From the UHGV virus genome UHGV-0105868: 23,305 nt of DNA, one strand, 5' to 3'. Of this stretch, positions 2,492 through 22,200 are shown one piece after another. The stretch comes from a virus. The position numbers and the translations under genes are program-made. The first letter of the stretch is position 1; each line of letters starts with the position of its first letter. The notes beneath the pieces are model-generated. The model saw only the letters and a program-made list of their open reading frames with translations. It was not told the origin of the DNA and searched no databases.

Positions 2492-3061
2492 CTATTTAAC
2501 ATACTTGACTGTTAAACTTATAATTTTACCAATTATTTCAATGTCTTCTATCTTGCATTCGAAGGCTCTGTTTCCACCCTCGACGAAGATTCTTCCACCG
2601 GGTAAACGAGTAATGTCACGGATCGTTATTTCGCCATCAATACTTATTACCCATTTACCATCACGTATATCATCAAATTCTTTATCACAAATAAATTCAG
2701 AATTGTTATCTGTGATGACAAAAGGTTTTTTAAACGTAGAGGGTAGAAATCCCTTATCAAAAATATAAAAACCGTCTTTCTGCAATGCTCCATCAGACAA
2801 TAAATATTTTTCTACTTCTATAGTATTTGTATTTGCTGATGCTTGCTTTGAACCATGCCCTGTTGTTAGCCAATTAAGCGAGGTGCCCGTTTCAAGGGCG
2901 CACTGGATTACCCAATCTGCTGGAAAAATATCACGCATATAGCGCGTTGCCATGGTGCTCTTAGAAACACCTAAATGATCACAGAGAGCCTGACGGGTAC
3001 CGAACCCATATGCTTCAACTAAACGTTCTATGGCTTTCTTACCGCCGCTATTGAAATCCAC
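2492..3061 (-). CDS. cI: Phage 186 CI-type immunity repressor (HTH N-terminal domain, non-peptidase C-terminal domain)
   Basis: HTH region …ERLVEAYGFGTRQALCDHLGVSKSTMATRYMRD…CALETGTSLNWLTTG… resembles 186 CI as I remember it. No S24 peptidase motif was seen. I prefer a GTG start at 3061, preceded by GGAGGA (189 aa); the open frame extends to a GTG at 3148 (218 aa), so the start is uncertain. Confidence 0.7.
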   Translation of the reverse strand: MDFNSGGKKAIERLVEAYGFGTRQALCDHLGVSKSTMATRYMRDIFPADWVIQCALETGTSLNWLTTGHGSKQASANTNTIEVEKYLLSDGALQKDGFYIFDKGFLPSTFKKPFVITDNNSEFICDKEFDDIRDGKWVISIDGEITIRDITRLPGGRIFVEGGNRAFECKIEDIEIIGKIISLTVKYVK

Positions 3062-3088: not shown

Positions 3089-3117
3089 TTGACAGATTCC
3101 AAAAGCGATCTTAAAGT
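3089..3117 (+). promoter_or_regulatory. Candidate rightward lytic promoter (pR-like): -35 TTGACA, 17-bp spacer, -10 TAAAGT
   Basis: Perfect -35 hexamer at 3089..3094 and a 4/6 -10 hexamer at 3112..3117, about 90 bp upstream of apl. Found by sequence inspection only. Confidence 0.3.
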
Positions 3118-4814: not shown

Positions 4815-5048
4815 ATGCGTAATATTGAAAACCTCACGACTAAAACCGGACCAGATGACGCAGGGCTTAATATTTTACTGACAGAGGCTCGTCTGGAAGA
4901 ACGCCGGGCAAGGGCTGAAGCAATGGCAGCTCGCCTTGATAGCCTGGCGTGTCATATCTCATCCCGTCAGCTAAACCACGTGGAAGCGGCAGAACTGCTG
5001 CGTGTGACTGCTGAAGCAATCCAGAACGAAGCGCAGGAGATCCACTAA
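4815..5048 (+). CDS. Hypothetical phage protein (77 aa)
   Basis: ATG 8 nt after AGGAG. The track's TTG start at 4809 is less likely. Its stop overlaps the next gene's start (TAATG). Confidence 0.55.
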   Translation: MRNIENLTTKTGPDDAGLNILLTEARLEERRARAEAMAARLDSLACHISSRQLNHVEAAELLRVTAEAIQNEAQEIH

Positions 5049-5275
5049 TGGCTGATGCAATGGATCTCGTACAGCAGCGCGTTGAAGAAGAACGCCAGCG
5101 CCATATCCGTGCTGCCCGTGCCAAAACGCCGGGCGTGTCCCGCGTGCTTTGCGTTGAGTGTGAAGCGCCAATTCCGCCAGCACGCCGTCGTGCCATACCG
5201 GGTGTGCAGCTTTGCATTACCTGTCAGGAAATCGCAGAGCTGAAAGGCAAACATTACAACGGAGGTGCTGTATGA
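5048..5275 (+). CDS. DksA/TraR-family C4 zinc-finger protein
   Basis: 75 aa with CVECEAPIP…-(17 aa)-…CITC, the four-Cys zinc finger typical of phage TraR-like proteins. Confidence 0.8.
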   Translation: MADAMDLVQQRVEEERQRHIRAARAKTPGVSRVLCVECEAPIPPARRRAIPGVQLCITCQEIAELKGKHYNGGAV

Positions 5276-6129
5276 GCACCATCCTGAAATGGGCGGGAAA
5301 TAAAACCGCCATAATGTCCGAACTGAAAAAGCATCTTCCTGCTGGCCCGCGACTGGTTGAACCTTTCGCGGGTTCCTGTGCAGTGATGATGGAGACGGAT
5401 TACCCCAGCTATCTTGTTGCGGATATTAATCCTGATTTAATCAACCTCTATAAAAAGGTTGCTGCTGATTGTGAGGCGTTTATATCTCGTGCCAGAGCTT
5501 TATTTGAGGACGCAAACAGGGAGGTGACTTATTACAACATAAGGTAGGAGTTTAATTACTCAACTGAAATTACTGATTTCATGAAAGCGGTATATTTCCT
5601 GTATCTCAATCGTCACGGTTACCGTGGGTTATGTCGTTATAACAAGAGCGGGCATTTCAACATTCCATACGGTAATTATAAAAATCCGTATTTCCCTGAA
5701 AAAGAAATTCGCGCATTTGCAGAGAAAGCCCAGCGAGCAACGTTTATCTGCGCCAGCTTTGATGAAACGCTGGCGATGCTGCAGGTGGGGGATGTGGTGT
5801 ATTGCGATCCGCCTTATGACGGTACGTTTTCCGGTTATCACACTGACGGCTTCACTGAAGATGACCAGTATCACCTGGCATCCGTTCTTGAACATCGGTC
5901 ATCAGAAGGACATCCGGTCATTGTTTCTAATAGTGACACATCCCTGATCCGTTCGCTGTATCGCAATTTCACTCACCACTACATCAAGGCAAAACGCAGC
6001 ATTGGCGTGTCAGCTGGCGAGAGTAAATCTGCAACAGAAATCATCGCTGTTTCTGGGGCGCGCTGCTGGGTGGGATTTGATCCTTCGCGTGGCGTGGATA
6101 GTTCTGCCGTGTACGGAGTGCGTGCATGA
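5272..6129 (+). pseudogene. dam: Dam-type N6-adenine DNA methyltransferase interrupted by an in-frame amber codon (TAG at 5545..5547)
   Basis: N-terminal part has …ILKWAGNK… and EPFAGS (motif I). C-terminal part has …[15 protein letters not shown]… and DPPY (motif IV). The two track ORFs (ending 5547, starting 5581) are in the same frame. Reading through the TAG gives [27 protein letters not shown], which aligns with E. coli Dam (…YYQFREEFNKSQDPFRRAVLFLYLNR…) with the stop at a Glu position. GGAGG RBS before 5272. Confidence 0.8.
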
Positions 6130-8540
6130 GCCATGCTGATATGAACAACTGCAGCGGCTTTAACGAGGCCGCCGCAGCATTCTCATGGAACAGCCCGAAA
6201 AAGGCTATTAACCCTTATCTGGACCCGGCGGAAGTTGCGCCGGTTTCTGCGCTTTCAAACCTGATCACTCTGTACGCTGTCGATAACGAGCAGGAACAAC
6301 TGCGTCGCGAGGCACTGAGTGATCAGGTCTGGGAGCGTTATTTCTTTAATGAATCCCGTGATCCTGTTCACCGCGAAATGGAGCAGGATAAGCTCATTAG
6401 CCGGGCAAAGCTGGCGCATGAGCAGCAGCGTTTTAATCCAGATATGGTCATTCTGGCGGACGTCAATGCCCAGCCTTCCCATATCAGCAAGCCGCTGATG
6501 CAACGTATTGAATACTTCAGCAGCCTGGGCAGGCCAAAGGCTTATTCCCGCTATTTGCGTGAGACGATTAAGCCATGTCTGGAACGACTGGAGCATGTAC
6601 GCGACTGTCAGCTATCCACTTCTTTTCGCTTTATGGCAAGCCATGAAGGGCTGGACGGCCTGCTGATCCTGCCTGAAATGAGTCAGGATCAGGTGAAGCG
6701 CCTGTCTACCCTTGTCGCCGCGCATATGAGCATGTGCCTTGATGCAGCTTGTGGTGATTTGTATGCCACCGATGACGTTAAGCCAGAAGAAATCCGCAAG
6801 ACATGGGAAAAGGTGGCAGCGGAAACCCTGCGTCTGGATGTTATCCCGCCTGCGTTTGAGCAACTCCGTCGGAAAAGAAACCGCCGTAAACCCGTGCCTT
6901 ATGAACTCATTCCGGGTTCGCTGGCGCGTATGTTATGCGCCGACTGGTGGTATCGGAAATTATGGAAGATGCGTTGCGAATGGCGGGAAGAGCAGTTGCG
7001 TGCTGTTTGCCTGGTCAGCAAAAAAGCATCTCCCTATGTCAGCTATGAAGCCGTGATGCATAAACGTGAGCAGCGCCGTAAGTCGCTGGAGTTTTTCCGT
7101 TCTCATGAACTGGTGAACGAAGACGGCGACACGCTGGATATGGAAGACGTGGTAAACGCCAGCAGCAGCAACCCTGCGCATCGCCGCAATGAGATGATGG
7201 CCTGTGTTAAAGGTCTGGAGCTTATCGCGGAAATGCGCGGTGACTGCGCCGTTTTCTACACCATCACCTGTCCGTCACGTTTCCATTCCACGCTAAATAA
7301 CGGCAGGCCCAACCCGACCTGGACAAATGCGACGGTAAGACAAAGCAGTGATTATCTGGTCGGTATGTTTGCTGCATTTCGTAAGGCGATGCACAAAGCC
7401 GGATTGCGCTGGTATGGCGTGCGGGTGGCTGAGCCGCATCATGACGGTACAGTTCACTGGCACCTGTTGTGTTTTATGCGCAAAAAAGATCGCCGCGCCA
7501 TTACTGCTTTGTTGCGTAAGTTTGCCATTCGTGAAGACCGCGAGGAGCTGGGTAATAACACGGGACCACGCTTTAAGTCTGAGCTGATAAACCCGCGCAA
7601 AGGTACGCCAACAAGCTACATCGCGAAATACATCAGTAAGAACATTGACGGGCGTGGTCTGGCTGGCGAGATCAGCAAGGAAACGGGTAAATCCCTGCGT
7701 GATAACGCTGAATACGTTAATGCCTGGGCGTCTCTGCATCGTGTTCAGCAATTCCGCTTCTTTGGCATTCCGGGGCGTCAGGCTTACCGTGAACTGCGAT
7801 TGCTGGCTGGTCAGGCGGCAAGGCAACAGGGGGACAAAAAAGCAGGTGCGCCGGTACTGGATAACCCGCGTCTTGATGCCATCCTGGCCGCTGCTGATGC
7901 TGGTTGTTTTGCCACCTACATCATGAAGCAGGGCGGCGTACTGGTTCCCCGCAAATATCACCTCATCAGAACCGCTTATGAAATCAACGAAGAGCCGACC
8001 GCCTATGGCGATCACGGCATTCGTATTTATGGCATCTGGTCACCCATTGCAGAGGGCAAGATCTGCACTCATGCGGTGAAGTGGAAAATGGTTCGTAAGG
8101 CCGTTGACATTCAGGAGGCGGCAGCCGACCAGGGCGCTTGCGCCCCTTGGACTCGTGGCAATAACTGTCCCCTTGCTGAAAATTTGTACCAACAAGGGAA
8201 AGACAAATCAGCTGATGGGGATACCAGAACGGATATCACCCGTATGGATGACAAGGAGTTGCACGATTACCTGCACAGTATGAACAAAAAAGAACGCCGG
8301 GAACTGGCTGCAAGGTTACGCCTGGTGAAACCGAAACGGCGTAGAGACTACAAACAGCGAATTACAGACCATCAACGACAGCAGCTCGTCTATGAACTGA
8401 AGTCCAGAGGATTTGATGGCAGCGAGAAAGAGGTCGATTTACTCCTTCGCGGCGGCAGTATTCCGTCAGGAGCAGGCCTGCGTATCTTCTATCGGAACCA
8501 GCGTTTGCAGGAAGATGATAAGTGGCGGGATCTGTATTAA
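6126..8540 (+). CDS. A: Replication initiation protein A (rolling-circle nicking endonuclease, P2 gpA-like)
   Basis: 804 aa containing …[13 protein letters not shown]… (HxH metal motif) and …YIAKYISKN… (catalytic Tyr region). Start overlaps the dam stop (ATGA). Confidence 0.9.
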
Positions 8541-9631: not shown

Positions 9632-10750
9632 ATGTATCTTTTCAAGTATTACCGTCCGGACTTCTTCTTCGAGAAAGCTATTCGTTATAATGAATTATAT
9701 TTTTCCGCTCCTGCGCAATTGAATGATCCTAATGATCTCAATATAGATTATCGTTTTGATAATAAATTGAAATTATGGGATATTTTATTGCGTTCTCCTT
9801 GCGATAAATCCTATGAAAATTTGAGTCACATATTAGATTTGAGTAATTTGAAGATACATAAGGGATTGAATCGTATTTTTAGAGGAAAAAAAATAAAAAG
9901 TAGCATTGAGTCATTAGATAGCCTGTTTGACTCACACGTTGATGAGATACGTAAGATCATAAATGATGGTTTACTACCTATCAATGTGATTAATTCCGCT
10001 ATTTATGGGAATATTCCTGAACCACGCCAATTTTTGGTCTCACTTTGCGAGAACAGTATCAAAGAAAGGTTGTATAGGAAAATAGTTCCTGCAGTATTCA
10101 GTGTGTCATTTTCAGCTAATGCGTTAGATCGTATGATGTGGGCGCATTATGCTGCAGGCTTTAGTGGTTGTGTTGTGATTTATGAAACGCAGGATTTTAA
10201 TATTAATGGCGTGCCACATCCTGGAATGAAGCTAAGAGAAAATTTATTTTCATCAGATAAATTTAATTTTCCAGTTAAGCAAATAAAATATAGTAATCAG
10301 GCTAAAGAGGTTTCACTTCTAGACCCAAGCGCAAATGTTGCAGAGTTATTTTTAACTAAAAATAGATTTTGGAGATATGAAGCTGAATATCGAATGTTTA
10401 TTCCAGAGGCAAATGCAGGAATAGGGAGTGAGCGGCATGTTCAAAGACGCGTAAATCGAAATATTGGACATATTTTTCATCATGATGCTAATGTTGTTAA
10501 AGGGATCATTTTTGGTCCTAGAATGTGTGAAATGAAAAAAGAAAGCATATGGAATTGTATCAAGTCAAATATGGAGAATTCAAATTCAACAATATGTTAT
10601 TTTTTTGACTCTGAGTTATCAGCATCAGGAAAGATTACTATTTCAAAAGGGCAACGAGCGGAAAAAATGAAAAATTTCCCTTTGTTCAGGAACAAGTTAA
10701 GTCAGACGGAAATGGCTAAAGTTTTGAAGGAAATTGGCATTACGAACTAA
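9632..10750 (+). CDS. AT-rich cargo protein (372 aa) with DUF2971-like N-terminal motif; candidate defence / abortive-infection gene
   Basis: Long ORF in a visibly AT-rich region, unlike the GC-richer phage backbone. N-terminus LFKYYRPDFFFEKAIRYNELYFSAPAQLNDPNDL and a later …SFSANALDRMMWAHYAAGFSGCVVIY… resemble the DUF2971 family signature as I remember it. Function unknown. Confidence 0.8.
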   Translation: MYLFKYYRPDFFFEKAIRYNELYFSAPAQLNDPNDLNIDYRFDNKLKLWDILLRSPCDKSYENLSHILDLSNLKIHKGLNRIFRGKKIKSSIESLDSLFDSHVDEIRKIINDGLLPINVINSAIYGNIPEPRQFLVSLCENSIKERLYRKIVPAVFSVSFSANALDRMMWAHYAAGFSGCVVIYETQDFNINGVPHPGMKLRENLFSSDKFNFPVKQIKYSNQAKEVSLLDPSANVAELFLTKNRFWRYEAEYRMFIPEANAGIGSERHVQRRVNRNIGHIFHHDANVVKGIIFGPRMCEMKKESIWNCIKSNMENSNSTICYFFDSELSASGKITISKGQRAEKMKNFPLFRNKLSQTEMAKVLKEIGITN

Positions 10751-11005: not shown

Positions 11006-12679
11006 ATGGAAAAATATCAAGATGAGGAATATGTAGACGATTTAACTGAGCGTGTTTTTCTCATTAAGCAACAACTGGAAGCGGGAAAACTAAAAATAGC
11101 TCATCATCTTGTAGAAGGTTTTATTGAAAGTTTTAAAAGAATAAGGCTGCGACAGGATGGTAAAGTTGACCCTTCTACTGTTGATGGCAGAATAAGGGCT
11201 ATGGGAGCAGCGGTTAATCACTTTTTAGAAAGAGAAGATATAAAAAACAAATACTCTATTCAGGACTTGCAAAGTTCTTACTTTAATATTCTTTTTAGTA
11301 ATTTTGGCGAGTTGTTTTATCTGATGAAAAAAACTAATGCAACGCCACATAAAGCATCAAGTTTTTTTTCTCAACAAGAAGAATATGTTAAGCAAATAGA
11401 AGGTGTTTTTCCTGAGTTATATAATCAGGTAATAGAGTTTTGGCAGGTAACATCCGATATTGGTGTAATACATTTGCAGGATGGTTCTCAGTTTAAAGCT
11501 AATTTTTCTGGTGACTTATTTCCTGCATTTGATGAGAATGCTGTCTCTATTGCAGGGTTGTATGTTGATACTATTTCACTTCCATGTCCTATATTAAGAG
11601 TCGGTCGTCTCTATGAAAAGTCAGATAAGGCTGAGTTTACAAGGATACTTCTGAAGCATGTCCTAACATGTATGACATATAAAGAAGTAGCGCTTGAAGA
11701 TATAGAGCCAGCAATAGTATTAATTTTGCCGGATAGAAGAGATTTTGAAACTGAGAGCAAAAAAAATTTGATGAGTTTTTGTGAGCCTTATGCTCTGACT
11801 CATGCGCAATATCTCTATGATCGACGGTTCGAAAGCTACGATGAATTTCAAGATTTTAGTTATTCGATGAATGATATTGATGCTGTTCTTAAAAATATTA
11901 AGAGAGCAGATAGACTTATTTTTGATACAGCATGGGGGCTAAATCCAAAAACTCAATTAGAAAAACTACTATCTGATAAAAAAAGAATATCACGTAATGT
12001 TGTTGGTGATCATGCTGGAATGGAGGTTTTCCTTTCCTGCATTGGAAGAATGCCGCAAGCCTATTCAGCAAAATGTAATGCACAAGAACTTGGTAGTACT
12101 CCATATATAAATGCAGACACATCTTGGCTCTATTATACTTGGCTTATTGAGTACGAATCTCTTAATTTTGATGTCAATGATATTGAACTAAAAAATTTGC
12201 ATATGGTTCATGCGTTATCTGCTGGTATGCAAGATGGTTTTTCATGGTTAGGAAATGTACCGGTCAATAAAATAATTGAGTTGAGACGTAACAAATTGAT
12301 GGAGGATGTAAGATCCATCTTATCAAATGGTGTTGACTCTTTAATCAATTCTTCGGCAGAGAGCTTTTCGAGGACAACGCAAAAAGTAATTGATAATGTA
12401 GACCGGGCTTTTATTGAACATCAAAGGATTCTTGCAAAAGCCCAAAAAGAGAAATTGAGAATTTACGGACTGGATGTCCTACCATGTATCGCAAATGGTG
12501 CTATAGCAATTGCTGGAGCGCTGACTGGCAATACTACTTTAGCGGCGTTAAGTGCAGGCCTTGGAGTAATAGGTATTCCGAGTATTAGTGATATCAAATC
12601 TAAATTTAAGCAGAGGCAAGAGAAGCTTGATGCCTATCAACGTTCTGTTACAGGTATACTCTTTAGCCATAAATCTTAA
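11006..12679 (+). CDS. AT-rich cargo protein (557 aa), unknown function, C-terminal hydrophobic Gly/Ala-rich segment; candidate defence / abortive-infection effector
   Basis: Long AT-rich ORF with a GGAG RBS. No motif recognised in the mostly soluble-looking body. Near the C-terminus is a hydrophobic stretch, …LPCIANGAIAIAGALTGNTTLAALSAGLGVIGIPSI…, long enough for one or two membrane helices. Confidence 0.8.
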   Translation: MEKYQDEEYVDDLTERVFLIKQQLEAGKLKIAHHLVEGFIESFKRIRLRQDGKVDPSTVDGRIRAMGAAVNHFLEREDIKNKYSIQDLQSSYFNILFSNFGELFYLMKKTNATPHKASSFFSQQEEYVKQIEGVFPELYNQVIEFWQVTSDIGVIHLQDGSQFKANFSGDLFPAFDENAVSIAGLYVDTISLPCPILRVGRLYEKSDKAEFTRILLKHVLTCMTYKEVALEDIEPAIVLILPDRRDFETESKKNLMSFCEPYALTHAQYLYDRRFESYDEFQDFSYSMNDIDAVLKNIKRADRLIFDTAWGLNPKTQLEKLLSDKKRISRNVVGDHAGMEVFLSCIGRMPQAYSAKCNAQELGSTPYINADTSWLYYTWLIEYESLNFDVNDIELKNLHMVHALSAGMQDGFSWLGNVPVNKIIELRRNKLMEDVRSILSNGVDSLINSSAESFSRTTQKVIDNVDRAFIEHQRILAKAQKEKLRIYGLDVLPCIANGAIAIAGALTGNTTLAALSAGLGVIGIPSISDIKSKFKQRQEKLDAYQRSVTGILFSHKS

Positions 12680-12710: not shown

Positions 12711-13742
12711 TTATATGAAACTGTATGGCATGAATTTTATTATGTCATCTTTGAGCCATTTATTGAGTTCTTCTATTCTGTTTTGTAGCGGTATCAATTC
12801 ATTACGCATAAAAACCTTACTAGCCTTCTCCACATCCCCAAATCCCCCAACATTATTCGGTATTATCCCCATCATTTGCGGCGGCACTCGGTGTGCTGCC
12901 ATCATGTCATCCCGGCTCACGTTCTTGATATTCAAAAATTCATCCTTTGCCGCGACTTCTGACAGAGGAATAATCTGAAGCCCGTCCTTTTTGCCGTTAG
13001 GCGAGTACATAAACAGGTTGCGGAAGTTGCCAGGGCCTTTGGCGCTTTTCATCGCATTGCGGAGGTTGTTCACGTCCTCCTGGTTCTGCGCGGCATCGGT
13101 CATGTACATGATGAAGCCAGCATGACTGCCGTTAATGTAATACTTTCGGCGGAACAGCGTGGCGGACTCGTTGAGCAGGGCTGACGGAATGGCAGAAAGA
13201 TAACCGGGCAGGCCGTAGATCTCCTGGTTGATGTCCGGTTCCATCAGATGAAAGATGCTGCCTTTCGTGAACTGATATGGCTGCGTGGTCATACCGTATT
13301 GCACAAACCAGTAGGTATCCAGGTCTAACCCGCGTCGGGTGTATTTTGCCAGGGCAGGTTCAAGGGCGATAACTTCACCGAAGCGGTTCGTGCGTTTCTC
13401 CAGGTAGGCGTTACCAAATACCAGATAGTCCTGAACAAAACGCGAAAAAGCCTGCTGGCTGAGCAGCGGGTGAGGGATGTAGGTGCTGGTCAGAATGTTG
13501 CACTTTACTGCAATCGGGGAACTATGATGCACGGCAGCGCGGAAGGTGCGCGCCAGTCCGTCAAAGCTGACGGGCGGTTCATACCAGCGGTCCATCTGTA
13601 CGCATTCCACATAATCCAGCAGTTCTCGGCGGTCCAGAACAGGAACGGGATCGCCGAAGCTGAATGCTTCGGCTGTAGTTTGACTTTTAAGCTGGATCTG
13701 TTTCGTCGCCGCAGCGCGGTTCTTCTTACTCTTTCCCATCAA
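12711..13742 (-). CDS. Q: Portal protein (P2 gpQ-like)
   Basis: 343 aa at the P2 gene Q position and orientation (3' end toward cos, divergent from the head genes). Confidence 0.85.
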   Translation of the reverse strand: MMGKSKKNRAAATKQIQLKSQTTAEAFSFGDPVPVLDRRELLDYVECVQMDRWYEPPVSFDGLARTFRAAVHHSSPIAVKCNILTSTYIPHPLLSQQAFSRFVQDYLVFGNAYLEKRTNRFGEVIALEPALAKYTRRGLDLDTYWFVQYGMTTQPYQFTKGSIFHLMEPDINQEIYGLPGYLSAIPSALLNESATLFRRKYYINGSHAGFIMYMTDAAQNQEDVNNLRNAMKSAKGPGNFRNLFMYSPNGKKDGLQIIPLSEVAAKDEFLNIKNVSRDDMMAAHRVPPQMMGIIPNNVGGFGDVEKASKVFMRNELIPLQNRIEELNKWLKDDIIKFMPYSFI

Positions 13743-15343
13743 AAAATCTCCACAATATTGCTGGTATTGGCGGATTCGCCCTGCAGCGGTTCGTTAAACA
13801 GTGCGTGCATCGTTGCCCAGGCCAGATCGGCGTGGCTGGCTTCTTCGCTGCGGCTGGCTTCATAGGTCGGGCGGTTGCCACTGGCGGTGGTGGCGCGACG
13901 GATTGCCATAAAGGACTGCGCTATGTCGGTGTGTCCGGCGTCAAACTCCAGACGGCGGTGGCTGATAATGTCGTAGGCCTTGAGTACCAGGGCGTTTTTA
14001 ACGTTGGGGTTGTAGACAAACTCCCGGACGGCAGGAAAAAACGCTTTCACGTTCTCGTAAACCCCGTGACCAACGCCGGTTGAGTCGATACCGATATAGG
14101 TCACGTTGTACTGTTCGGTCAGTTTTTTGATGGCGTCAGCCTGGGCGCGGAAGTCCATCCCGCGCCACTGGTGACGCTCAAGAATGCGGAACTTACCACC
14201 CGGCACGGCTGGCGGTGCCACCACCACGCATCCGGCGCTGTCGCCGTTTTGCGTGCCTTTTGCCGGGTCATAACCGATCCACACTTCGCGCCAGCCAAAC
14301 GGGCGCAGCGCCAGTGCATGAAAGTCGGTCCAGACTTCCCAACTGTCCACCATGCACGCCTGCAGCTCGCTGAGCGGAAACACGGACGCGAGATCGTCCA
14401 CAAACTCGCACATCAGCAGGTTCTGGTATTCATCCGGGCTGTACTCCATGCGTAGCTGGTCGAGGTCGAACAGGTTACAGCCGCCGCGTACCGCATCTTC
14501 CACGGTGACTATCTGGCGGTATTGCCCGTCTGCGCACAGCAGGCCGGGGGCCAGATTGCTGTGGGACAGGTCGATGTCCACCTTATCGGCTTTGTTGCGC
14601 CCACGGTTGAACAGCGCACCGGACCAGAACGGATAAGCACTGTGTGTCAGACTGGATGGCGTGGAAAAATAGGTTTGTCGCCATTTTTTGTGAATAGCCA
14701 TACCGGAAGCCACTTTGCGCAGCTCCTGAAATTTCGGTATCCAGAAATATTCATCCAGATACAGGTTGCCGTGATAACTCTGGGCCGTGCGGGCATTGGT
14801 GCCGAGGAAATACAGTGTGGCCCCGTTGGGAAGCACCATCGGATCGCCTTTCAGCTCCACCTCTACTTCTTTGGCGAAGTCGATGATGTACTGTTTAAAG
14901 ACGTGGGCCTGTGCCTTACTGGCGGAAAGGAAAATCTGGTTACGTCCGGTAAGCAGGGCGTCAATCAGGGCTTCACGGGCAAAGTAAAAGGTCGCGCCGA
15001 TCTGGCGTGACTTCAGCAGGTTGCGGATGCGGTTGGTTTTTCCGGCTTCCCACCAGTGGCGCTGGTAGTTGAACATGGAGGAATGGAAAATTTCTTCCAG
15101 CTTCTCAATCTGTTCATCGGTGAAAACGTTCTTTTCCGGCTGACGGCGTGGGCCTTTGTTGCGGTTGGCGACGTTAGGGTTTAAGTCGGCTTCGTTGCCG
15201 CCATTGTTAAACTTGCCGATCCGCGCATGGCGCTCCGACTGGCGCGCCAGCAGGTCAATCTCTTTGAAATCTTTCCCTTCTTTGTGCTCCTTCATAATGA
15301 GCTGGCAGTAGCGTGCGGCGGTGGTGAGCTGCATCTGATCCAC
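13739..15343 (-). CDS. P: Terminase large subunit (P2 gpP-like ATPase/nuclease)
   Basis: 534 aa with a Walker-A-like …LLKSRQIGATFYFA… region. Start overlaps the Q stop. Start is GTG or a nearby ATG. Confidence 0.85.
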   Translation of the reverse strand: MDQMQLTTAARYCQLIMKEHKEGKDFKEIDLLARQSERHARIGKFNNGGNEADLNPNVANRNKGPRRQPEKNVFTDEQIEKLEEIFHSSMFNYQRHWWEAGKTNRIRNLLKSRQIGATFYFAREALIDALLTGRNQIFLSASKAQAHVFKQYIIDFAKEVEVELKGDPMVLPNGATLYFLGTNARTAQSYHGNLYLDEYFWIPKFQELRKVASGMAIHKKWRQTYFSTPSSLTHSAYPFWSGALFNRGRNKADKVDIDLSHSNLAPGLLCADGQYRQIVTVEDAVRGGCNLFDLDQLRMEYSPDEYQNLLMCEFVDDLASVFPLSELQACMVDSWEVWTDFHALALRPFGWREVWIGYDPAKGTQNGDSAGCVVVAPPAVPGGKFRILERHQWRGMDFRAQADAIKKLTEQYNVTYIGIDSTGVGHGVYENVKAFFPAVREFVYNPNVKNALVLKAYDIISHRRLEFDAGHTDIAQSFMAIRRATTASGNRPTYEASRSEEASHADLAWATMHALFNEPLQGESANTSNIVEIF

Positions 15344-15354
15344 TGGACCGCATC

Positions 15355-15987
15355 ATGATCGGCTTTAACGGCGTGAAGCGTGCGAAAACCTCCAACCGTA
15401 GCGAAAAACCGCTGCTGCAGGATGTGAACAAAGGCTGGCTGCAGAAAATCCGTGAAGATGCACCGGATCACGTCATGGGCAGCACCACCACGGGCGGTGA
15501 AACCACACCGGGAGCGGTGAAAGTCGGGAAAGGTGGCGAATATGCCAACCTGGACGCCGTGGTGATGGATGCCGTCAATGAGCTTATCGATGTGGTCTAC
15601 CAGGACGATGACGATCTGGTGGTGATTTGCGGTCGTGAACTGCTGTCTGACAAGTATTTCCCGCTGGTCAACAAAGAGCAGGAAAACAGTGAAAAACTGG
15701 CTGCCGATATGATCATCAGTCAGAAACGCATGGGTGGCCTGCAGGCCGTGCGTGCGCCGTTCTTCCCGCCGAATGCACTGCTGATCACCCGTCTGGATAA
15801 CCTGTCCATCTACTGGCAGGAAGACACCCGCCGCCGCTCAGTTATCGACAACCCGAAACGTGACCGGATTGAAAACTTTGAATCCGTTAACGAAGCCTAT
15901 GTGGTTGAGGACTACCGCTGCGCCGCACTGGTGGAAAACATCCAGATTGGCGACTTCAGCGCCGCAGCAGCAGAAACCGGAGCGTAA
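15355..15987 (+). pseudogene. N: Major capsid protein fragment (C-terminal ~210 aa of P2 gpN-like); scaffold gene O and capsid 5' region absent
   Basis: MIGFNGVKRAKTSNRSEKPLLQDVNKGWLQK…LITRLDNLSIYWQED… matches the C-terminal two-thirds of P2 gpN as I remember it (…IMAGFNGVKRAETSDRS…). It begins only 11 bp from the divergent P start, leaving no room for gene O or the N-terminal ~145 codons of N. Confidence 0.7.
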
Positions 15988-15990
15988 TTC

Positions 15991-16641
15991 ATGAGCCTGA
16001 GTCCCGCACGGCAGCATCGCCTGCGCGTTCAGGCTGAACAGGCCGCCCGCGAGGGCGGCAGCGTTCGCCACGCGTCGGGCTATGACCTGATGCTGCTGCA
16101 ACTGGCGGAAGACCGCCGCCGTCTCAAGGGCGTTCAGTCCACGGTCAAAAAAGCGGAAATCAAGGTGGAGCTGCTGCCGAAGTACGCCGCCTGGGCGGAG
16201 GGTGTCCTGGCTGCCGGAGGCGCTCAACAGGATGACGTGCTGATGTACGTGATGCTGTGGCGCATTGATGCCGGAGATTATGCCGGGGCGCTGGAGATCG
16301 GGCGTCACGCCCTGCGTCATGGCTGGGTGATGCCGTTAGGTAACCGCAACGTGCAGACCGTGCTGGCAGAGGAAATGGCAGATGCAGCCCAGAGCTCAAT
16401 GCTTGCCGCCACCGGCTTTGATGCCGATCTGTTGCTGCAGACCCTGGAGCTGACAGACGGTATGGATATGCCGGACCAGTCACGGGCGCGTCTGCATAAA
16501 GCGATTGGCGCTGTCCTGAGTGAAAGAAATCCGGCGTCTGCCCTTAATCATCTCAACCATGCGTTACAGCTCGATCCCCGCTGTGGCGTGAAAAAAGACA
16601 AACAGCAGCTGGAGCGCAGACTGCGCAATGACAGCCGCTGA
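15991..16641 (+). CDS. M: Terminase small (endonuclease) subunit, P2 gpM-like
   Basis: 216 aa; MSLSPARQHRLRVQAEQAAREGG…VLMYVMLWRIDAGDYAGALEIGRHAL… resembles P2 gpM. Confidence 0.8.
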   Translation: MSLSPARQHRLRVQAEQAAREGGSVRHASGYDLMLLQLAEDRRRLKGVQSTVKKAEIKVELLPKYAAWAEGVLAAGGAQQDDVLMYVMLWRIDAGDYAGALEIGRHALRHGWVMPLGNRNVQTVLAEEMADAAQSSMLAATGFDADLLLQTLELTDGMDMPDQSRARLHKAIGAVLSERNPASALNHLNHALQLDPRCGVKKDKQQLERRLRNDSR

Positions 16642-16736
16642 CAGAACGTGCCCCCGCGCACGGGCGGCACGGGGCGGCGAAAGGCACTGCCACATCAAAA
16701 CCCCGTCCACCGCCCTCTATTTCAGGAGAAAGCAGC

Positions 16737-17201
16737 ATGAAGTTTGTTGCGCCAGAACAGGCACCGGAACAGGCGGAAATCATCAGGAATACGCCGTTCT
16801 GGCCTGATGTGGACCTGTCGGAGTTTCGCAGTGTGATGCGCACTGACGGCACGGTGACGCAGCCGCGTTTAAAACAGGTTGCCCTGTCGGCAATTTCGGA
16901 GGTCAACGCAGAGCTGTATGAGTTTCGCAGACGCCAGCAGATGCTGGGGTATGCCTCGCTGGCAGAAGTCCCGGCGGAACAACTGGACGGCAAAAGCGAG
17001 CGCATTCAGCACTATTTCAACGCGGTTTATTGCTGGGCACGCGCCATGCTCAACGAACGTTACCAGGACTATGACGCCACGGCATCCGGTGCGAAGCGAG
17101 GCGAGGAACTGGCGGAAGCAAGCGGTGATTTATGGCGTGACGCCCGCTGGGCCATCAGCCGGGTGCAGGATGCGCCGCACTGCACAGTGGAGCTTATCTG
17201 A
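16737..17201 (+). CDS. L: Head completion/stabilisation protein (P2 gpL-like)
   Basis: 154 aa in the gene L position. AGGAG RBS. Confidence 0.8.
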   Translation: MKFVAPEQAPEQAEIIRNTPFWPDVDLSEFRSVMRTDGTVTQPRLKQVALSAISEVNAELYEFRRRQQMLGYASLAEVPAEQLDGKSERIQHYFNAVYCWARAMLNERYQDYDATASGAKRGEELAEASGDLWRDARWAISRVQDAPHCTVELI

Positions 17202-17404
17202 TGAAAGTGCGTGCGCATCAGTATGACACGGTGGACGCACTTTGCTGGCGTCATTACGGGCGCACGCAGGGTGTCACGGAGCAGGTACTGAAGGCAAATC
17301 CGGGGCTTGCCGAATACGGCCCCTTTTTACCTCACGGGCTGCAGGTGGAGCTGCCGGACATTCCGACAACCACCACCGTGCAGACCGTCCAGCTATGGGA
17401 CTGA
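17201..17404 (+). CDS. X: Tail protein X (P2 gpX-like)
   Basis: 67 aa, the same length as P2 gpX, in the gene X position. Confidence 0.8.
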   Translation: MKVRAHQYDTVDALCWRHYGRTQGVTEQVLKANPGLAEYGPFLPHGLQVELPDIPTTTTVQTVQLWD

Positions 17405-17407
17405 ATT

Positions 17408-17623
17408 ATGACGCTTGAGCGAATCAGCGCCTTTATCACGTATTGCATCGCCGTCGTGCTGGCCTGGCTGGGCGATTTGTCCATCAAGGATGCCTCAACG
17501 CTGGGCGGCCTGATGATCGGTGTGCTGATGCTGGCTATCAACTGGTACTACAAACACAAAGCCTACCAGCTTCTGCGCGACGGGCAGATCTCGCGGGAGG
17601 ACTATGAATCCATCAATCGTTAA
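17408..17623 (+). CDS. Holin
   Basis: 71 aa with two hydrophobic helices (…ISAFITYCIAVVLAWLG… and …LGGLMIGVLMLAINWYY…) and a charged C-terminus. Immediately upstream of the lysozyme gene. Confidence 0.7.
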   Translation: MTLERISAFITYCIAVVLAWLGDLSIKDASTLGGLMIGVLMLAINWYYKHKAYQLLRDGQISREDYESINR

Positions 17624-18116
17624 ACGCTGCCTTGTCGGGGCCGTGCTGGCTATTGCTGCCACGCTGCCGGGGTTTCAGCAGCTTCACACCTCCGAGGAGG
17701 GACTGAAACTGATCGCCGATTATGAAGGCTGTCGTCTGCAGCCGTATCAGTGCAGCGCGGGTGTCTGGACCGACGGCATTGGTAATACGTCGGGCGTCAT
17801 TCCCGGCAAAATTATTACGGAACGACAGGCAGCTGAAGGGCTGATCTCCAACGTGCTACGAGTGGAGCGGGCGCTGGAAAGGTGTGTGAAGCAACAGCCG
17901 CCGCAGAAGGTGTATGACGCTACGGTGTCGTTTGCCTTCAACGTGGGGACGGGCAATGCCTGTAGTTCCACGCTGGTGAAATTGCTCAATCAGCGGCGCT
18001 GGGCGGATGCATGCCGACAGTTGCCGCGCTGGGTTTATGTGAAAGGTGTTTTTAATCAGGGGCTGGATAACCGCCGTGCGCGGGAGATGGCCTGGTGTTT
18101 ACAGGGAGCAAACTGA
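17604..18116 (+). CDS. Endolysin (lysozyme), probably a signal-anchor-release (SAR) type
   Basis: 170 aa. N-terminus has a weakly hydrophobic Gly/Ala-rich segment (CLVGAVLAIAATLPG). Then …DYEGCRLQPYQCSAGVWTDGIGNT…, a Glu-x8-Cys/Asp-x5-Thr lysozyme catalytic pattern. Confidence 0.8.
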   Translation: MNPSIVKRCLVGAVLAIAATLPGFQQLHTSEEGLKLIADYEGCRLQPYQCSAGVWTDGIGNTSGVIPGKIITERQAAEGLISNVLRVERALERCVKQQPPQKVYDATVSFAFNVGTGNACSSTLVKLLNQRRWADACRQLPRWVYVKGVFNQGLDNRRAREMAWCLQGAN

Positions 18117-18117
18117 A

Positions 18118-18495
18118 ATGAAAAAGAAATTAATCAGCGGACTGTTTCTGATGTTATGGATGGCGCTGTTAATCGCAGCAATGGTGTATCCGCAGGGGAT
18201 TTTTCCGGTACTGGCAGCGTCCGGCGTTTGGGTAGCCTGTTTGCTGACATGGGCGGTAATTCCGGTAGCACTGGCTGCGTTAATTAAGAATGGCCCGCTC
18301 TGGCAGGAGTTAAGGGCATCTTTGCTGAAGACAATTACCCGAAAAGAAAACGTATTTACCAGTTGGGTGATGCGATTGCTGATTGTTGTAAGTCTCGCCT
18401 GGACGGGGTGGGCTATTACCCTGGTCTTTTATCTACTGACCGTTATTGCCTTCTGGATCACCCGTAATCAGATGGCGCAACAGGTAGCAGCATGA
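18118..18495 (+). CDS. LysA-like lysis-timing membrane protein
   Basis: 125 aa from MKKKLISGLFLMLWMALLIAAMVY…, with about four hydrophobic helices. In the P2 lysA position. Confidence 0.65.
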   Translation: MKKKLISGLFLMLWMALLIAAMVYPQGIFPVLAASGVWVACLLTWAVIPVALAALIKNGPLWQELRASLLKTITRKENVFTSWVMRLLIVVSLAWTGWAITLVFYLLTVIAFWITRNQMAQQVAA

Positions 18496-18926
18496 ACCGG
18501 TTGCTGCTGGTTGTGCTGACGTTATTACTGGCGGCGCTGGGCTGGCAGACGTGGCGGCTGGCTGATGCCAGCCAGACCATCAGCATGCAGGCAGACGAGC
18601 TGCAGAGCAAAAGCCAGGCACTGGCAAAGAGCAATAGCCAGCTTATCAGCCTGTCCATTCTGACTGAAACCAATAACCGGGAGCAGGCGCGGCTCTATGC
18701 CGAAGCAGAACAGACCAGCACGCTGCTGAGACAACGACAACACCGGATCGAGGAACTGAAACGTGAGAACGAGGATTCGCAGCGCAGAAATCATCCCGTA
18801 TCGCGTGGAAGCCACCATTTTTCTCTATCCTGGACCGGAAGCAGAGCCGGTAATGGCAGCGGCAAAAGCCAGCCTGCAGAAGTACATCGCCAGTCAGACG
18901 CGTCTTGGTCGGGATATTCGCCGTAG
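18492..18926 (+). CDS. LysB-like i-spanin, apparently 3'-truncated and running out-of-frame into a gene J remnant
   Basis: N-terminal membrane anchor MNRLLLVVLTLLLAALGW followed by a coiled-coil-like Q/E/R-rich region. The last ~40 codons overlap the J-fragment frame and look non-native. No Rz1/LysC-like ORF seen. Confidence 0.5.
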   Translation: MNRLLLVVLTLLLAALGWQTWRLADASQTISMQADELQSKSQALAKSNSQLISLSILTETNNREQARLYAEAEQTSTLLRQRQHRIEELKRENEDSQRRNHPVSRGSHHFSLSWTGSRAGNGSGKSQPAEVHRQSDASWSGYSP

Positions 18927-19065
18927 CGCCATCTTTGCCGCCCTGCATGTTGAGGGGGTGCAGCGTGTGGAGCTGGCTTCTCCTCAGGCGGATGTGGTCC
19001 TGAACAAAACACAGGCGGCATCATGTACGCAGTGGAGCGTAACCAACGGAGGAACGGATGAATAG
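18799..19065 (+). pseudogene. J: Baseplate protein J, C-terminal fragment only
   Basis: About 90 aa in-frame with and immediately upstream of gene I, overlapping its start. Far shorter than an intact baseplate J (about 300 aa). R, S, V, W and the 5' part of J are absent between the lysis genes and this point. Identification is from gene order and size. Confidence 0.45.
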
Positions 19066-19663
19066 TCTGCTGCCACCGGGTTCAACACCACTGGAGCGCC
19101 GACTGGCGCAAACCTGCAGCGGGATTTCTGATCTGCAGGTGCCGCTTCGTGACTTGTGGAATCCGGCAACCTGTCCGGTCAGTTTCCTGCCTTATCTCGC
19201 CTGGGCGTTCTCTGTGGATCGCTGGGACGAGGGCTGGACAGAAAGCGTCAAGCGCCAGGTGGTGAAGGATGCTTTTTATATTCATCAGCATAAAGGGACC
19301 ACCAGTGCCGTGCGGCGGGTGGTGGAGCCGTTCGGATTCCTGATCCGCATTATTGAGTGGTGGCAGACCGGAGAAACACCGGGCACGTTTCGCCTGGATA
19401 TCGGCGTGCAGGACCAGGGCATCACTGAAGATACCTATCTGGAACTTGAGCGACTGATAAGCGATGCCAAACCATGTAGCCGCCACATGATCGGCATGTC
19501 CATCAATCTGCAGACCAGCGGCCCGCATTGGGTGGGAGCCGCCAGCTATCTTGGCGAAGAAATCACGATCTATCCGTATATCAACGAAACGATTATTTCC
19601 GGTGGCACCGCGCATGAAGGCGGGGCGGTCCATGTTATTGACACAATGAGAGTGAATCCATGA
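19058..19663 (+). CDS. I: Baseplate/tail protein I (P2 gpI-like)
   Basis: 201 aa; …LLPPGSTPLERRLAQTCSGI…LWNPATCPVSFLPYLAWAFSVDRWDEGW… closely resembles P2 gpI as I remember it. Confidence 0.85.
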   Translation: MNSLLPPGSTPLERRLAQTCSGISDLQVPLRDLWNPATCPVSFLPYLAWAFSVDRWDEGWTESVKRQVVKDAFYIHQHKGTTSAVRRVVEPFGFLIRIIEWWQTGETPGTFRLDIGVQDQGITEDTYLELERLISDAKPCSRHMIGMSINLQTSGPHWVGAASYLGEEITIYPYINETIISGGTAHEGGAVHVIDTMRVNP

Positions 19664-21144
19664 GCACAAAATTTTATACCCTGCTGACGGATATTGGCGC
19701 GGCGAAACTTGCCAGCGCCGCCGCGCTCGGTGTGCCGCTAAAAATTACCCATATGGCGGTGGGCGATGGCGGTGGAGTATTGCCAACGCCGGACGCAAAG
19801 CAGACGGCACTGGTAAATGAGAAACGCCGGGCTGCACTGAATATGCTTTATATCGACCCGCAGAACAGCAGCCAGATTATTGCCGAACAGGTGATCCCTG
19901 AAAACGAGGGCGGTTGGTGGATACGTGAAGTGGGCTTGTTTGATGAGTCCGGGGCATTGATTGCCGTGGGCAACTGCCCGGAAAGCTATAAGCCGCAACT
20001 GGCTGAAGGTAGCGGGCGCACTCAGACCGTGCGCATGGTGCTGATTACCAGCAGCACGGACAATATCACCCTGAAAATCGACCCTGCTGTAGTGCTGGCA
20101 ACCCGCAAGTATGTGGATGACAAGGCACTGGAGCTGAAGGTGTACGCGGATGATCAGATGGCAAAACATCTTGCCGCACCGGACCCGCATTCACAGTACG
20201 CGCCAAAAGCCAGCCCGACATTTACCGGAATCCCCAAAGCGCCAACGCCAGCGGCGGGGAATAATACCACGCAGGTTGCGACCACTGCGTTTGTACAGGC
20301 GGCACTGACGGCCCTTATTAATGGTGCGCCAGCCACGCTGGACACGCTGAAAGAAATAGCCGCAGCCATTAACAATGATCCGAATTTCAGTACCACCATT
20401 AACAATGCGCTGGCACTAAAAGCACCGTTGTCGAGTCCGGCACTCACCGGAACGCCAACAGCCCCCACGGCGGCGCAGTCGGTCAACAATACACAGATTG
20501 CCACTACGGCTTTTGTGAAATCGGCGATTGCAGGAATGGTGGGTTCTGCACCTGCTGCACTGGATACACTGAACGAACTGGCGGCGGCACTGGGGAATGA
20601 TCCGAACTTTGCCACGACAATGCTTAATGCGTTGGCAGGTAAACAACCGCTGGACAATACGCTTACCAATTTGAGTGGAAAGGATGTAGCTGGTCTTCTC
20701 ACATACCTTCAATTGGGAGAAGCGGCAAAACGGGATGTCGGAACCGGTAATAATCAACTCCCGGACATGTCCGCATTTGGTATGTCGCGAAACGGACAAA
20801 CTGCCTGGGATATTCTCCCAAATGGTATGATTCGACAGGCTGGCACTGTGACACTGACACCAGTTGGTAACTTCAACTCGCAGGTGCTTGGTGGGGTGAC
20901 GTACTACACCCATTACTACAGGGTTAATTTCCCCAGACAATTCCCAAATGCACAAATAGCAACGCTGGCAACACTAGCGAGTTACAGCTATTCGACCCAG
21001 GCAACAATGGCCGGAAAATCACTGGCAACGCATCGCGATACTGATTCTGGCACTGACGTATCAAGAACGCGATTCACTGTGGCGTATACGACACCCAATC
21101 TCGGCGAAACACCGACACTGCATTTTGAAGCAATAGGATACTAA
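19660..21144 (+). CDS. H: Tail fibre protein (P2 gpH-like) with a divergent C-terminal receptor-binding region
   Basis: 494 aa. The N-terminal two-thirds carry conserved fibre motifs (MAVGDGGG, ESYKPQLAEGSGRTQT, repeated …PTFTG.P.APT…NNTQ(V/I)ATTAFV…, LNELAAALGNDPNFATTM). The C-terminal ~150 aa are different and end …EAIGY. Confidence 0.85.
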   Translation: MSTKFYTLLTDIGAAKLASAAALGVPLKITHMAVGDGGGVLPTPDAKQTALVNEKRRAALNMLYIDPQNSSQIIAEQVIPENEGGWWIREVGLFDESGALIAVGNCPESYKPQLAEGSGRTQTVRMVLITSSTDNITLKIDPAVVLATRKYVDDKALELKVYADDQMAKHLAAPDPHSQYAPKASPTFTGIPKAPTPAAGNNTTQVATTAFVQAALTALINGAPATLDTLKEIAAAINNDPNFSTTINNALALKAPLSSPALTGTPTAPTAAQSVNNTQIATTAFVKSAIAGMVGSAPAALDTLNELAAALGNDPNFATTMLNALAGKQPLDNTLTNLSGKDVAGLLTYLQLGEAAKRDVGTGNNQLPDMSAFGMSRNGQTAWDILPNGMIRQAGTVTLTPVGNFNSQVLGGVTYYTHYYRVNFPRQFPNAQIATLATLASYSYSTQATMAGKSLATHRDTDSGTDVSRTRFTVAYTTPNLGETPTLHFEAIGY

Positions 21145-21773: not shown

Positions 21774-22200
21774 TTAATACCCCAGCGCGATAAAACAACA
21801 ATCTTCGGTGCCCTCTCCGGATGGCGACCAGTTCTGAATACTGATATGCGTTCTGCTGGCAATACGCACATTCATCGCGGCATTGTAGCCAGATGTTCCA
21901 CGGTTTCCGGTCGCAAATAAGCCTGCATAGGGAAAAGCAAATGGTAAGGCATATCCAGCATCAGCTCCCTTTTGTGTTGCCACCGTTCCCCACTGCAACA
22001 TAAGTTTCACCGGGTTTCCTGTCGTCGCAATGCATGGAATGTAGATGTAGCCATTCCCTGACATCATTGACCTGAAGCTGTCTAAATCCAGTAACTTCGA
22101 GGCATTATCTGCTCCAACATCTCGTGTTGCGGCGGTCCCTAACTGGAGCGCATTTCGGAAGGCTGATACATCAGAAATATCAGCTCCATTACCCGCCGTG
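21774..22200 (-). pseudogene. Alternative tail-fibre C-terminal (receptor-binding) domain fragment on the opposite strand
   Basis: The minus-strand ORF encodes …FFTAGNGADISDVSAFRNALQLGTAATRDVGADNASKLLDLDSF…FIALGY, which parallels the H C-terminal region (…YLQLGEAAKRDVGTGNNQLPDMSAF…EAIGY). There is no constant N-terminal part. The track ORF's first ~35 codons are antisense to the D fragment. Confidence 0.6.

Follow-up and report, generated by a model that had tools for sequence, protein, structure and literature searches.

Retron-Ec67 belongs to a 186-related prophage; according to the citations in PMC7826664 and PMC8989520, a Dam methylase function was attributed to this element in 1990 (Hsu, Inouye & Inouye 1990 PNAS 87:9454; Dodd & Egan 1996). 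The Dam protein of this retronphage has 285 amino acids, the same length as the ancestral form of the gene analysed here, which is 95% identical to a protein listed in NCBI records under the name 'retron EC67 DNA adenine methylase'. The two prophages are also of the same type, with cI, cII, fil, a DUF2732 gene, a TraR-like gene, dam and A in common. In complete phage genomes, the relatives are those of Salmonella phage RE-2010 (Felsduovirus, YP_007003503) and of the Klebsiella P2-like phages KP12 and 4LV2017, which show 95.5-96.3% DNA identity over positions 5048-6300 of the window (the whole stretch of 23,305 nucleotides that was analysed). Their dam has the same gene neighbours, but it is intact and encodes 285 amino acids; the intact orthologues are annotated as 'DNA adenine methylase'. 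The Dam protein of the E. coli host (EcoDam; PDB 2G1P and 4GOL) is a colinear homologue that shares K9/W10, the AdoMet motif, Y119, L122, R124, P134, Y138 and DPPY. The gene in the window is, however, a separate phage-borne paralogue in which EcoDam N120 is replaced by Arg and Glu96 by Gln92, and the window copy is truncated.

It is well established that grounded or defective prophages erode stepwise (reviewed in PMC6379469). The same pattern of nested deletions and point inactivations is found in the window and in three related contigs (L011, L013 and L014), with integrase, repressor, early genes and cargo being kept. As opposed to the retron-Ec67 element, the window copy has an amber codon at position 92 of dam, contains no retron and belongs to a prophage that has been deleted three times.

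We propose, with a probability of roughly 85%, that the window holds a defective P2/186-like E. coli prophage in which dam was lost by a recent CAG-to-TAG change, probably a neutral step of erosion. The gene would have encoded a GATC-type N6-adenine methyltransferase of the retron-Ec67/RE-2010 kind, within a CI-repressed early operon (in the stretch from the TraR/DksA-like gene to A) of a Peduoviridae prophage located between rcdA and ybjL. Three deletions would first have destroyed the head, lysis and tail functions, and a spontaneous C-to-T change at 5545 would then have turned Gln92 into an amber codon. Translation would end after 91 residues, with no methyltransferase activity expected, and this amber, probably neutral, would be a further stage in the decay of a prophage that was already grounded.

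We see here the ordinary decay of a prophage, in a gene from a well-known family of phage and prophage Dam proteins, and no new mechanism. The window is a textbook case of erosion at very shallow divergence, and nothing notable sets it apart. Its value is modest, as a well-resolved snapshot of prophage erosion with the order of events given by sister assemblies, and it has little importance beyond annotation. There, the locus should be described as one dam pseudogene in a defective prophage, and not as the two methyltransferase genes (91 aa and 182 aa) that gene callers report.

The prophage and its early operon

The window is an E. coli prophage inserted between rcdA and ybjL. The gene order, as in its counterpart from strain p10A, is int, cI, then a divergent early operon, a DinI/Tum-like gene, two cargo genes, and P2-type late genes ending in D and ogr. 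The early operon consists of cII, fil, a DUF5347 gene, a DUF2732 gene, a TraR/DksA-like gene, dam and the replication endonuclease gene A. According to the annotation of p10A, the identity to RE-2010 and the Pfam families of the neighbouring genes, this set and order are those of a P2/186-like prophage (Peduoviridae), present in the window as an incomplete copy. The features that concern dam and its expression are the following:

2492-3061, minus strand: cI, divergent (from the gene order)
3089..3117, plus strand: candidate pR-like early promoter adjoining cI, TTGACA, 17-nt spacer, TAAAGT (10/12 consensus)
5048..5275, plus strand: TraR/DksA-like zinc-finger gene, the stop of which overlaps the dam start, ATGA 5272-5275 (ORF list, annotation)
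5272..6129, plus strand: dam pseudogene, D12-class N6-adenine DNA methyltransferase, 285 codons, amber at codon 92 (translation, PF02086, EcoDam structures)
6126..8540, plus strand: replication endonuclease, gpA-like, 804 aa, the start of which overlaps the dam stop, ATGA 6126-6129 (ORF list, annotation)

The sequence at 3089..3117 may work as the promoter of the rightward operon that holds dam, and this operon is presumably repressed by CI in a lysogen. The ATGA overlaps at both ends of dam suggest translational coupling from the TraR/DksA-like gene through dam to A. A GGAG of its own lies 7 nt ahead of the start of gene A; despite this, the amber in dam may reduce the translation or transcription of A, through uncoupling or Rho polarity. 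As a separate observation, a GATC site lies at 3107-3110, inside the spacer of this strong candidate for a pR-like promoter; with a GATC in this position, early transcription might respond to Dam methylation.

An interrupted dam gene

The dam gene extends from the ATG at 5272 to the TGA at 6127-6129 in a single frame of 286 codons including the final stop, and the translation of 5272-6129 has one internal stop only, the TAG at 5545-5547 (codon 92). This codon divides the gene into two open reading frames:

5272..5547, plus strand: N-terminal ORF, expected product of 91 aa, with K6/W7 and FAGSC (residues 32-36) (ORF list, translation)
5545..5547, plus strand: premature amber TAG derived from CAG (Gln92) by C-to-T at 5545 (comparison with relatives)
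5581..6129, plus strand: residual ORF of 182 aa from Met104, with the GATC-recognition hairpin and DPPY (residues 179-182, nt 5806-5817) (ORF list, EcoDam alignment)

When translated through the stop, the gene matches Pfam family PF02086 with E=7.6e-77 and 258.9 bits (cut-off 22), residues 7-244 covering positions 1-253 of the 253 of the profile. The alignment to the solved E. coli Dam structures was made with the ancestral form of the protein from strain p10A, which has Gln92, and not with the TAG allele; the two proteins are colinear (E=5e-74), and codon 92 faces EcoDam Glu96, with R-Q-E-F aligned to EcoDam R95-E96-E97-F98. An earlier reading of this DNA, made from the sequence only, had proposed that the two halves of dam lie in one frame parted only by the TAG at 5545..5547, that the read-through peptide is colinear with E. 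coli Dam and that the stop occupies a Glu position of that protein; all three points agree with the translation and the alignment.

The FAGSC sequence, an FxGxG-like motif for AdoMet binding, precedes the catalytic DPPY, and both are aligned to the same motifs of EcoDam. Five of the six EcoDam residues for GATC recognition are kept (Y117, L120, R122, P132 and Y136), whereas EcoDam N120 corresponds to Arg118. The observation of an interrupted dam is far beyond chance. The profile match, the order of the motifs and the recognition residues are those of PF02086, and the uninterrupted frame is missing. Because the TAG at codon 92 breaks the frame, we class the locus as a pseudogene of the D12-class family (Dam-type, alpha group), split by the stop into two ORFs, and not as an active member.

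According to the alignment, the 91-aa fragment keeps K6/W7 (EcoDam K9/W10) and FAGSC at 32-36, and its last residue is the equivalent of EcoDam R95. It is devoid of DPPY (179-182) and of the hairpin residues Y117, L120, R122, P132 and Y136, which correspond to EcoDam Y119, L122, R124, P134 and Y138, the residues that read GATC in that enzyme (PMC4417163). Since both the GATC-reading hairpin and DPPY are lost, homology argues strongly that the 91-aa product should be inactive. As for the second ORF, it is probably not translated independently, because a Shine-Dalgarno sequence is missing upstream: GGAG, GAGG, AGGA and AAGG are all absent from the 25 nt before its start (5556-5580). Reinitiation 34 nt past the stop is conceivable, and the product would miss the cofactor-binding part. 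A start newly made by the mutation was also considered and rejected, as AGGAG is present in both alleles and there is no in-frame start codon at a usable distance.

Origin of the stop codon

A megablast search with positions 5048-6300 against 5,426 complete E. coli genomes found the region in 1,242 of them. Fourteen are 99.9% identical over the whole region, the lone difference being the T of the window against C at 5545, which gives CAG. Codon 92 is also CAG in Salmonella phage RE-2010, in the sister contig L013 (ERZ27266564) and in all of the 80 closest loci of IMG/VR, a set collected with the window's own 182-aa ORF as query and in which the 285-aa frame is intact in 78 cases. Codon 92 was therefore changed from CAG (Gln92) to TAG by a C-to-T transition at 5545. 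The sequence-only reading had suggested an origin from GAG and had proposed a comparison of orthologous dam genes as a check; in this comparison the relatives carry CAG (Gln), never GAG, at codon 92, so that this part of the reading has to be abandoned. Deamination at a Dcm hotspot was ruled out for 5545, since the context is GGCAGG and not CCWGG.

Deletions and order of events

Compared with the intact p10A prophage, the window aligns in four blocks and has 23.3 kb instead of 34.5 kb; 11.2 kb were removed by three deletions:

15341..15342: deletion junction 1, 1,569 bp, 5' end of the terminase ATPase gene, scaffold gpO and 5' part of the capsid gene (versus p10A; 2-bp microhomology)
18776..18777: deletion junction 2, 2,719 bp, end of lysB, lysC, tail completion, baseplate V and W, and 5' part of J (versus p10A; 2-bp microhomology)
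22190..22191: deletion junction 3, 6,911 bp, invertase, tail sheath, tube, tape measure, gpU and 5' part of gpD (versus p10A; 2-bp microhomology)

The head, lysis and tail genes having been deleted, the prophage is judged to be defective and unable to make virions. Outside the deletions there are three substitutions relative to p10A in 23.3 kb, at 646 (intergenic), 5545 (nonsense) and 18422 (missense). The last of these changes CGG to CTG, Arg to Leu, in a LysA-like gene.

The truncated capsid ORF created at junction 1 is present on 17 public contigs, and there is no recorded gene with the exact product of the fusion ORF of junction 2 (18492-18926). As one colinear piece, the thrice-deleted remnant is found in none of the 5,426 complete E. 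coli genomes, and all its known copies come from metagenome, run-level or draft assemblies. Among these, two are informative about the order of the events. Contig L013 has deletions 1 and 2, and over 16,031 bases it matches the window everywhere but at 5545, where it has C, with dam intact. Genome assembly GCA_053944015.1 (NCBI) has the exact junction of deletion 3 together with a different large deletion (window 13382-20598 absent), and in it CAG is kept and dam is intact. Since deletions 1 and 2 occur with CAG in the former and junction 3 occurs with an intact dam in the latter, the amber arose last, after the three deletions had crippled the prophage. Moreover, contig L014 has all three deletions and a fourth one (window 16514-17994 missing), and L011 is missing window 13382-20598; these nested and extra deletions in sister contigs point to an ongoing stepwise erosion.

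Thus, the earlier view of a phage dam broken by a single in-frame amber stands, and recent inactivation, one of the options that it offered, is favoured by the identity to L013 over 16 kb except at 5545. Apart from the GAG origin, its shortcoming is that it missed the key context of the gene, the prior loss of 11.2 kb of morphogenesis genes.

Neutral decay or adaptive silencing

Among the alternatives, the one that survives best, although we consider it improbable, is that the amber was not neutral and that the loss of Dam, or a polar effect on the coupled gene A, was selected in the grounded prophage; for example, a second Dam or the gpA nickase, if triggered by the SOS response, might harm the host. 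Independent dam lesions found in relatives would agree with such a selection. In one contig (L006; Logan SRR30399122; 9927-9990) a 5-bp ACTCA tandem duplication causes a frameshift 14 bp after codon 92, in another (L007; ERZ930059; 1-80) GAG has become TAG at codon 79, and in two IMG/VR loci (L059 and L060) a deletion fuses the DUF2732 ORF to dam residue 43. However, the first two of these were found through the search with the 182-aa ORF, which detects lesions upstream of Met104 only and is blind to those past it. Contig L007 has 21 synonymous versus 4 non-synonymous codon changes, the amber being one of the latter, and its 182-aa part is unchanged because all the non-synonymous changes are upstream of Met104. 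An apparent rearrangement in a further contig (L009), at window 5851-5883, was discarded, as the scaffold simply has 14 consecutive N there.

The overlap of the dam stop with the start of A (ATGA) would also be in line with a selected polar effect, but all the eroded variants keep an intact gene A, and A has its own GGAG and is part of an operon presumably repressed by an intact CI. A third point in favour of selection is that the lone difference to L013 is a nonsense transition, a type that makes up a priori about 1% of transitions. In dam, stops are created by approximately 4.2% of all substitutions and by 1.2% of transitions (10/855), and to find one nonsense change among the three substitutions relative to p10A is unremarkable (P ~0.12). 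The nonsense change as the sole difference to L013 therefore hints weakly at non-neutrality, in an estimate that is biased because the finding was picked for being a stop.

The general state of the gene argues against a selected loss. The dN/dS of dam is 0.11 in relation to phage RE-2010 (24 synonymous and 9 non-synonymous codons), which, like the excess of synonymous changes in L007, indicates that the dam family is under purifying selection, and 78 of the 80 IMG/VR relatives are intact. The exact intact allele is present on 454 contigs versus 6 for the 91-aa fragment, and remnants of the prophage with an intact dam do exist (L013 and GCA_053944015.1). If selection were nevertheless at work, grounded P2/186-like prophages would repeatedly lose dam by nonsense, frameshift or deletion, in a host-driven taming of the early operon; the cause could be an SOS-induced second Dam that upsets hemimethylation-dependent host processes, or a polar stop that lowers the gpA nickase. 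Taking both sides together, we favour neutral erosion as the probable course.

Suppression and read-through of the stop

Natural amber suppressors are rare, and in a host with release factor 1 the read-through of UAG is presumably at trace level. It has a smaller chance still of being correct that dam depends on suppression, by a host amber suppressor such as a supE-like tRNA-Gln that would yield the exact wild-type protein, or that a useful read-through of UAG takes place. In E. coli K-12, glnV, a candidate place for such a suppressor, lies about 190 kb from the prophage site; the analysis covered roughly 40 kb of the 96.6-kb scaffold around the prophage. ARAGORN detected no tRNA in the window, so that the element itself has none with a CUA anticodon. 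In favour of read-through, codon 92 originally encoded Gln, the TAG is followed by a G, and Gln and Tyr are the documented insertions when UAG is read by near-cognate tRNAs in E. coli (PMC6207430). Insertion of Gln would regenerate wild-type Dam, at most in traces. A programmed read-through would have the stop kept among orthologues, but it is not conserved, with CAG in 80/80 IMG/VR loci, in the 14 complete genomes and in L013. Because L013 differs from the window by this base alone, there is no sign of adaptation to the stop. A dependence on an amber suppressor had been offered in the sequence-only reading as another option, and it receives no support from the tRNA search or from the relatives.

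The TAG allele in public assemblies

An exact-sequence look-up in ENA and Logan found the 91-aa product on 6-7 public contigs and the 182-aa product on 4-6. Scaffold_246 of ERZ28579185 (96.6 kb, from a metagenome) matches the window from end to end at 100% identity, so that the TAG and the three junctions are all present in it, and the TAG is likewise carried by ERZ28580896 and ERZ1303713. The contigs that bear it were produced by different assemblers and have lengths of up to 156 kb. They are possibly not independent, as SAMEA3708829 (the sample of ERZ28579185) and SAMEA3708830 are sibling samples, one small contig with TAG starts and stops where a portion of another does, and Logan contigs may share source runs. 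Several assemblers agree on the TAG, and the hosts of the TAG contigs may not be independent. A search of the literature found no paper describing samples SAMEA3708829 and SAMEA3708830.

These data bear on whether the stop could be an error of sequencing or assembly, the true base at 5545 being C, which had also been listed as an option. The source of the window is a metagenome assembly, the allele is absent from all the 5,426 complete E. coli genomes (megablast), and an exact-match scan for it gave 0 matches in a collection that, with one representative genome per species, is uninformative on this point. On the other hand, the same TAG is present in ERZ28579185, ERZ28580896, ERZ1303713 and Logan assemblies obtained with differing assemblers, and a substitution is atypical as an assembly artefact. 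Since the same allele occurs in several assemblies, we regard a one-off error as very unlikely.

Least credible of all is a split enzyme, in which the AdoMet-binding fragment of 91 aa would reassemble into an active Dam with a fragment of 182 aa for catalysis and DNA recognition, made by a restart of translation: both ORFs are intact, Met104 lies 34 nt beyond the stop, within termination-reinitiation range, and split methyltransferases, natural or artificial, exist, but there is no Shine-Dalgarno sequence ahead of 5581, residues 92-103 would be lost, none of the 80 IMG/VR loci is split at codon 92 and the TAG allele is one mutation old.

Other features of the window

The window has 78 GATC sites versus 83 expected, which means that there is no bias, and an Rfam scan of the window detected no RNA family. 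An antisense promoter-like site at 5702-5675 was set aside, as promoter-like sites number 5, fewer than the 9.1 in shuffled sequence. Two cargo genes separate the DinI/Tum-like gene from the portal gene:

9632-10750: cargo gene, 372-aa DUF2971 protein that matches the PADLOC candidate defence family PDC-S31 (3e-23)
11006-12679: cargo gene, 557-aa protein that matches DitB weakly (2.7e-10)

Besides these two candidates for a defence cargo, the remnant keeps the integrase, the repressor and the early operon. Both cargo genes are intact in every eroded variant seen, and an intact candidate defence cargo could explain why the remnant is retained.
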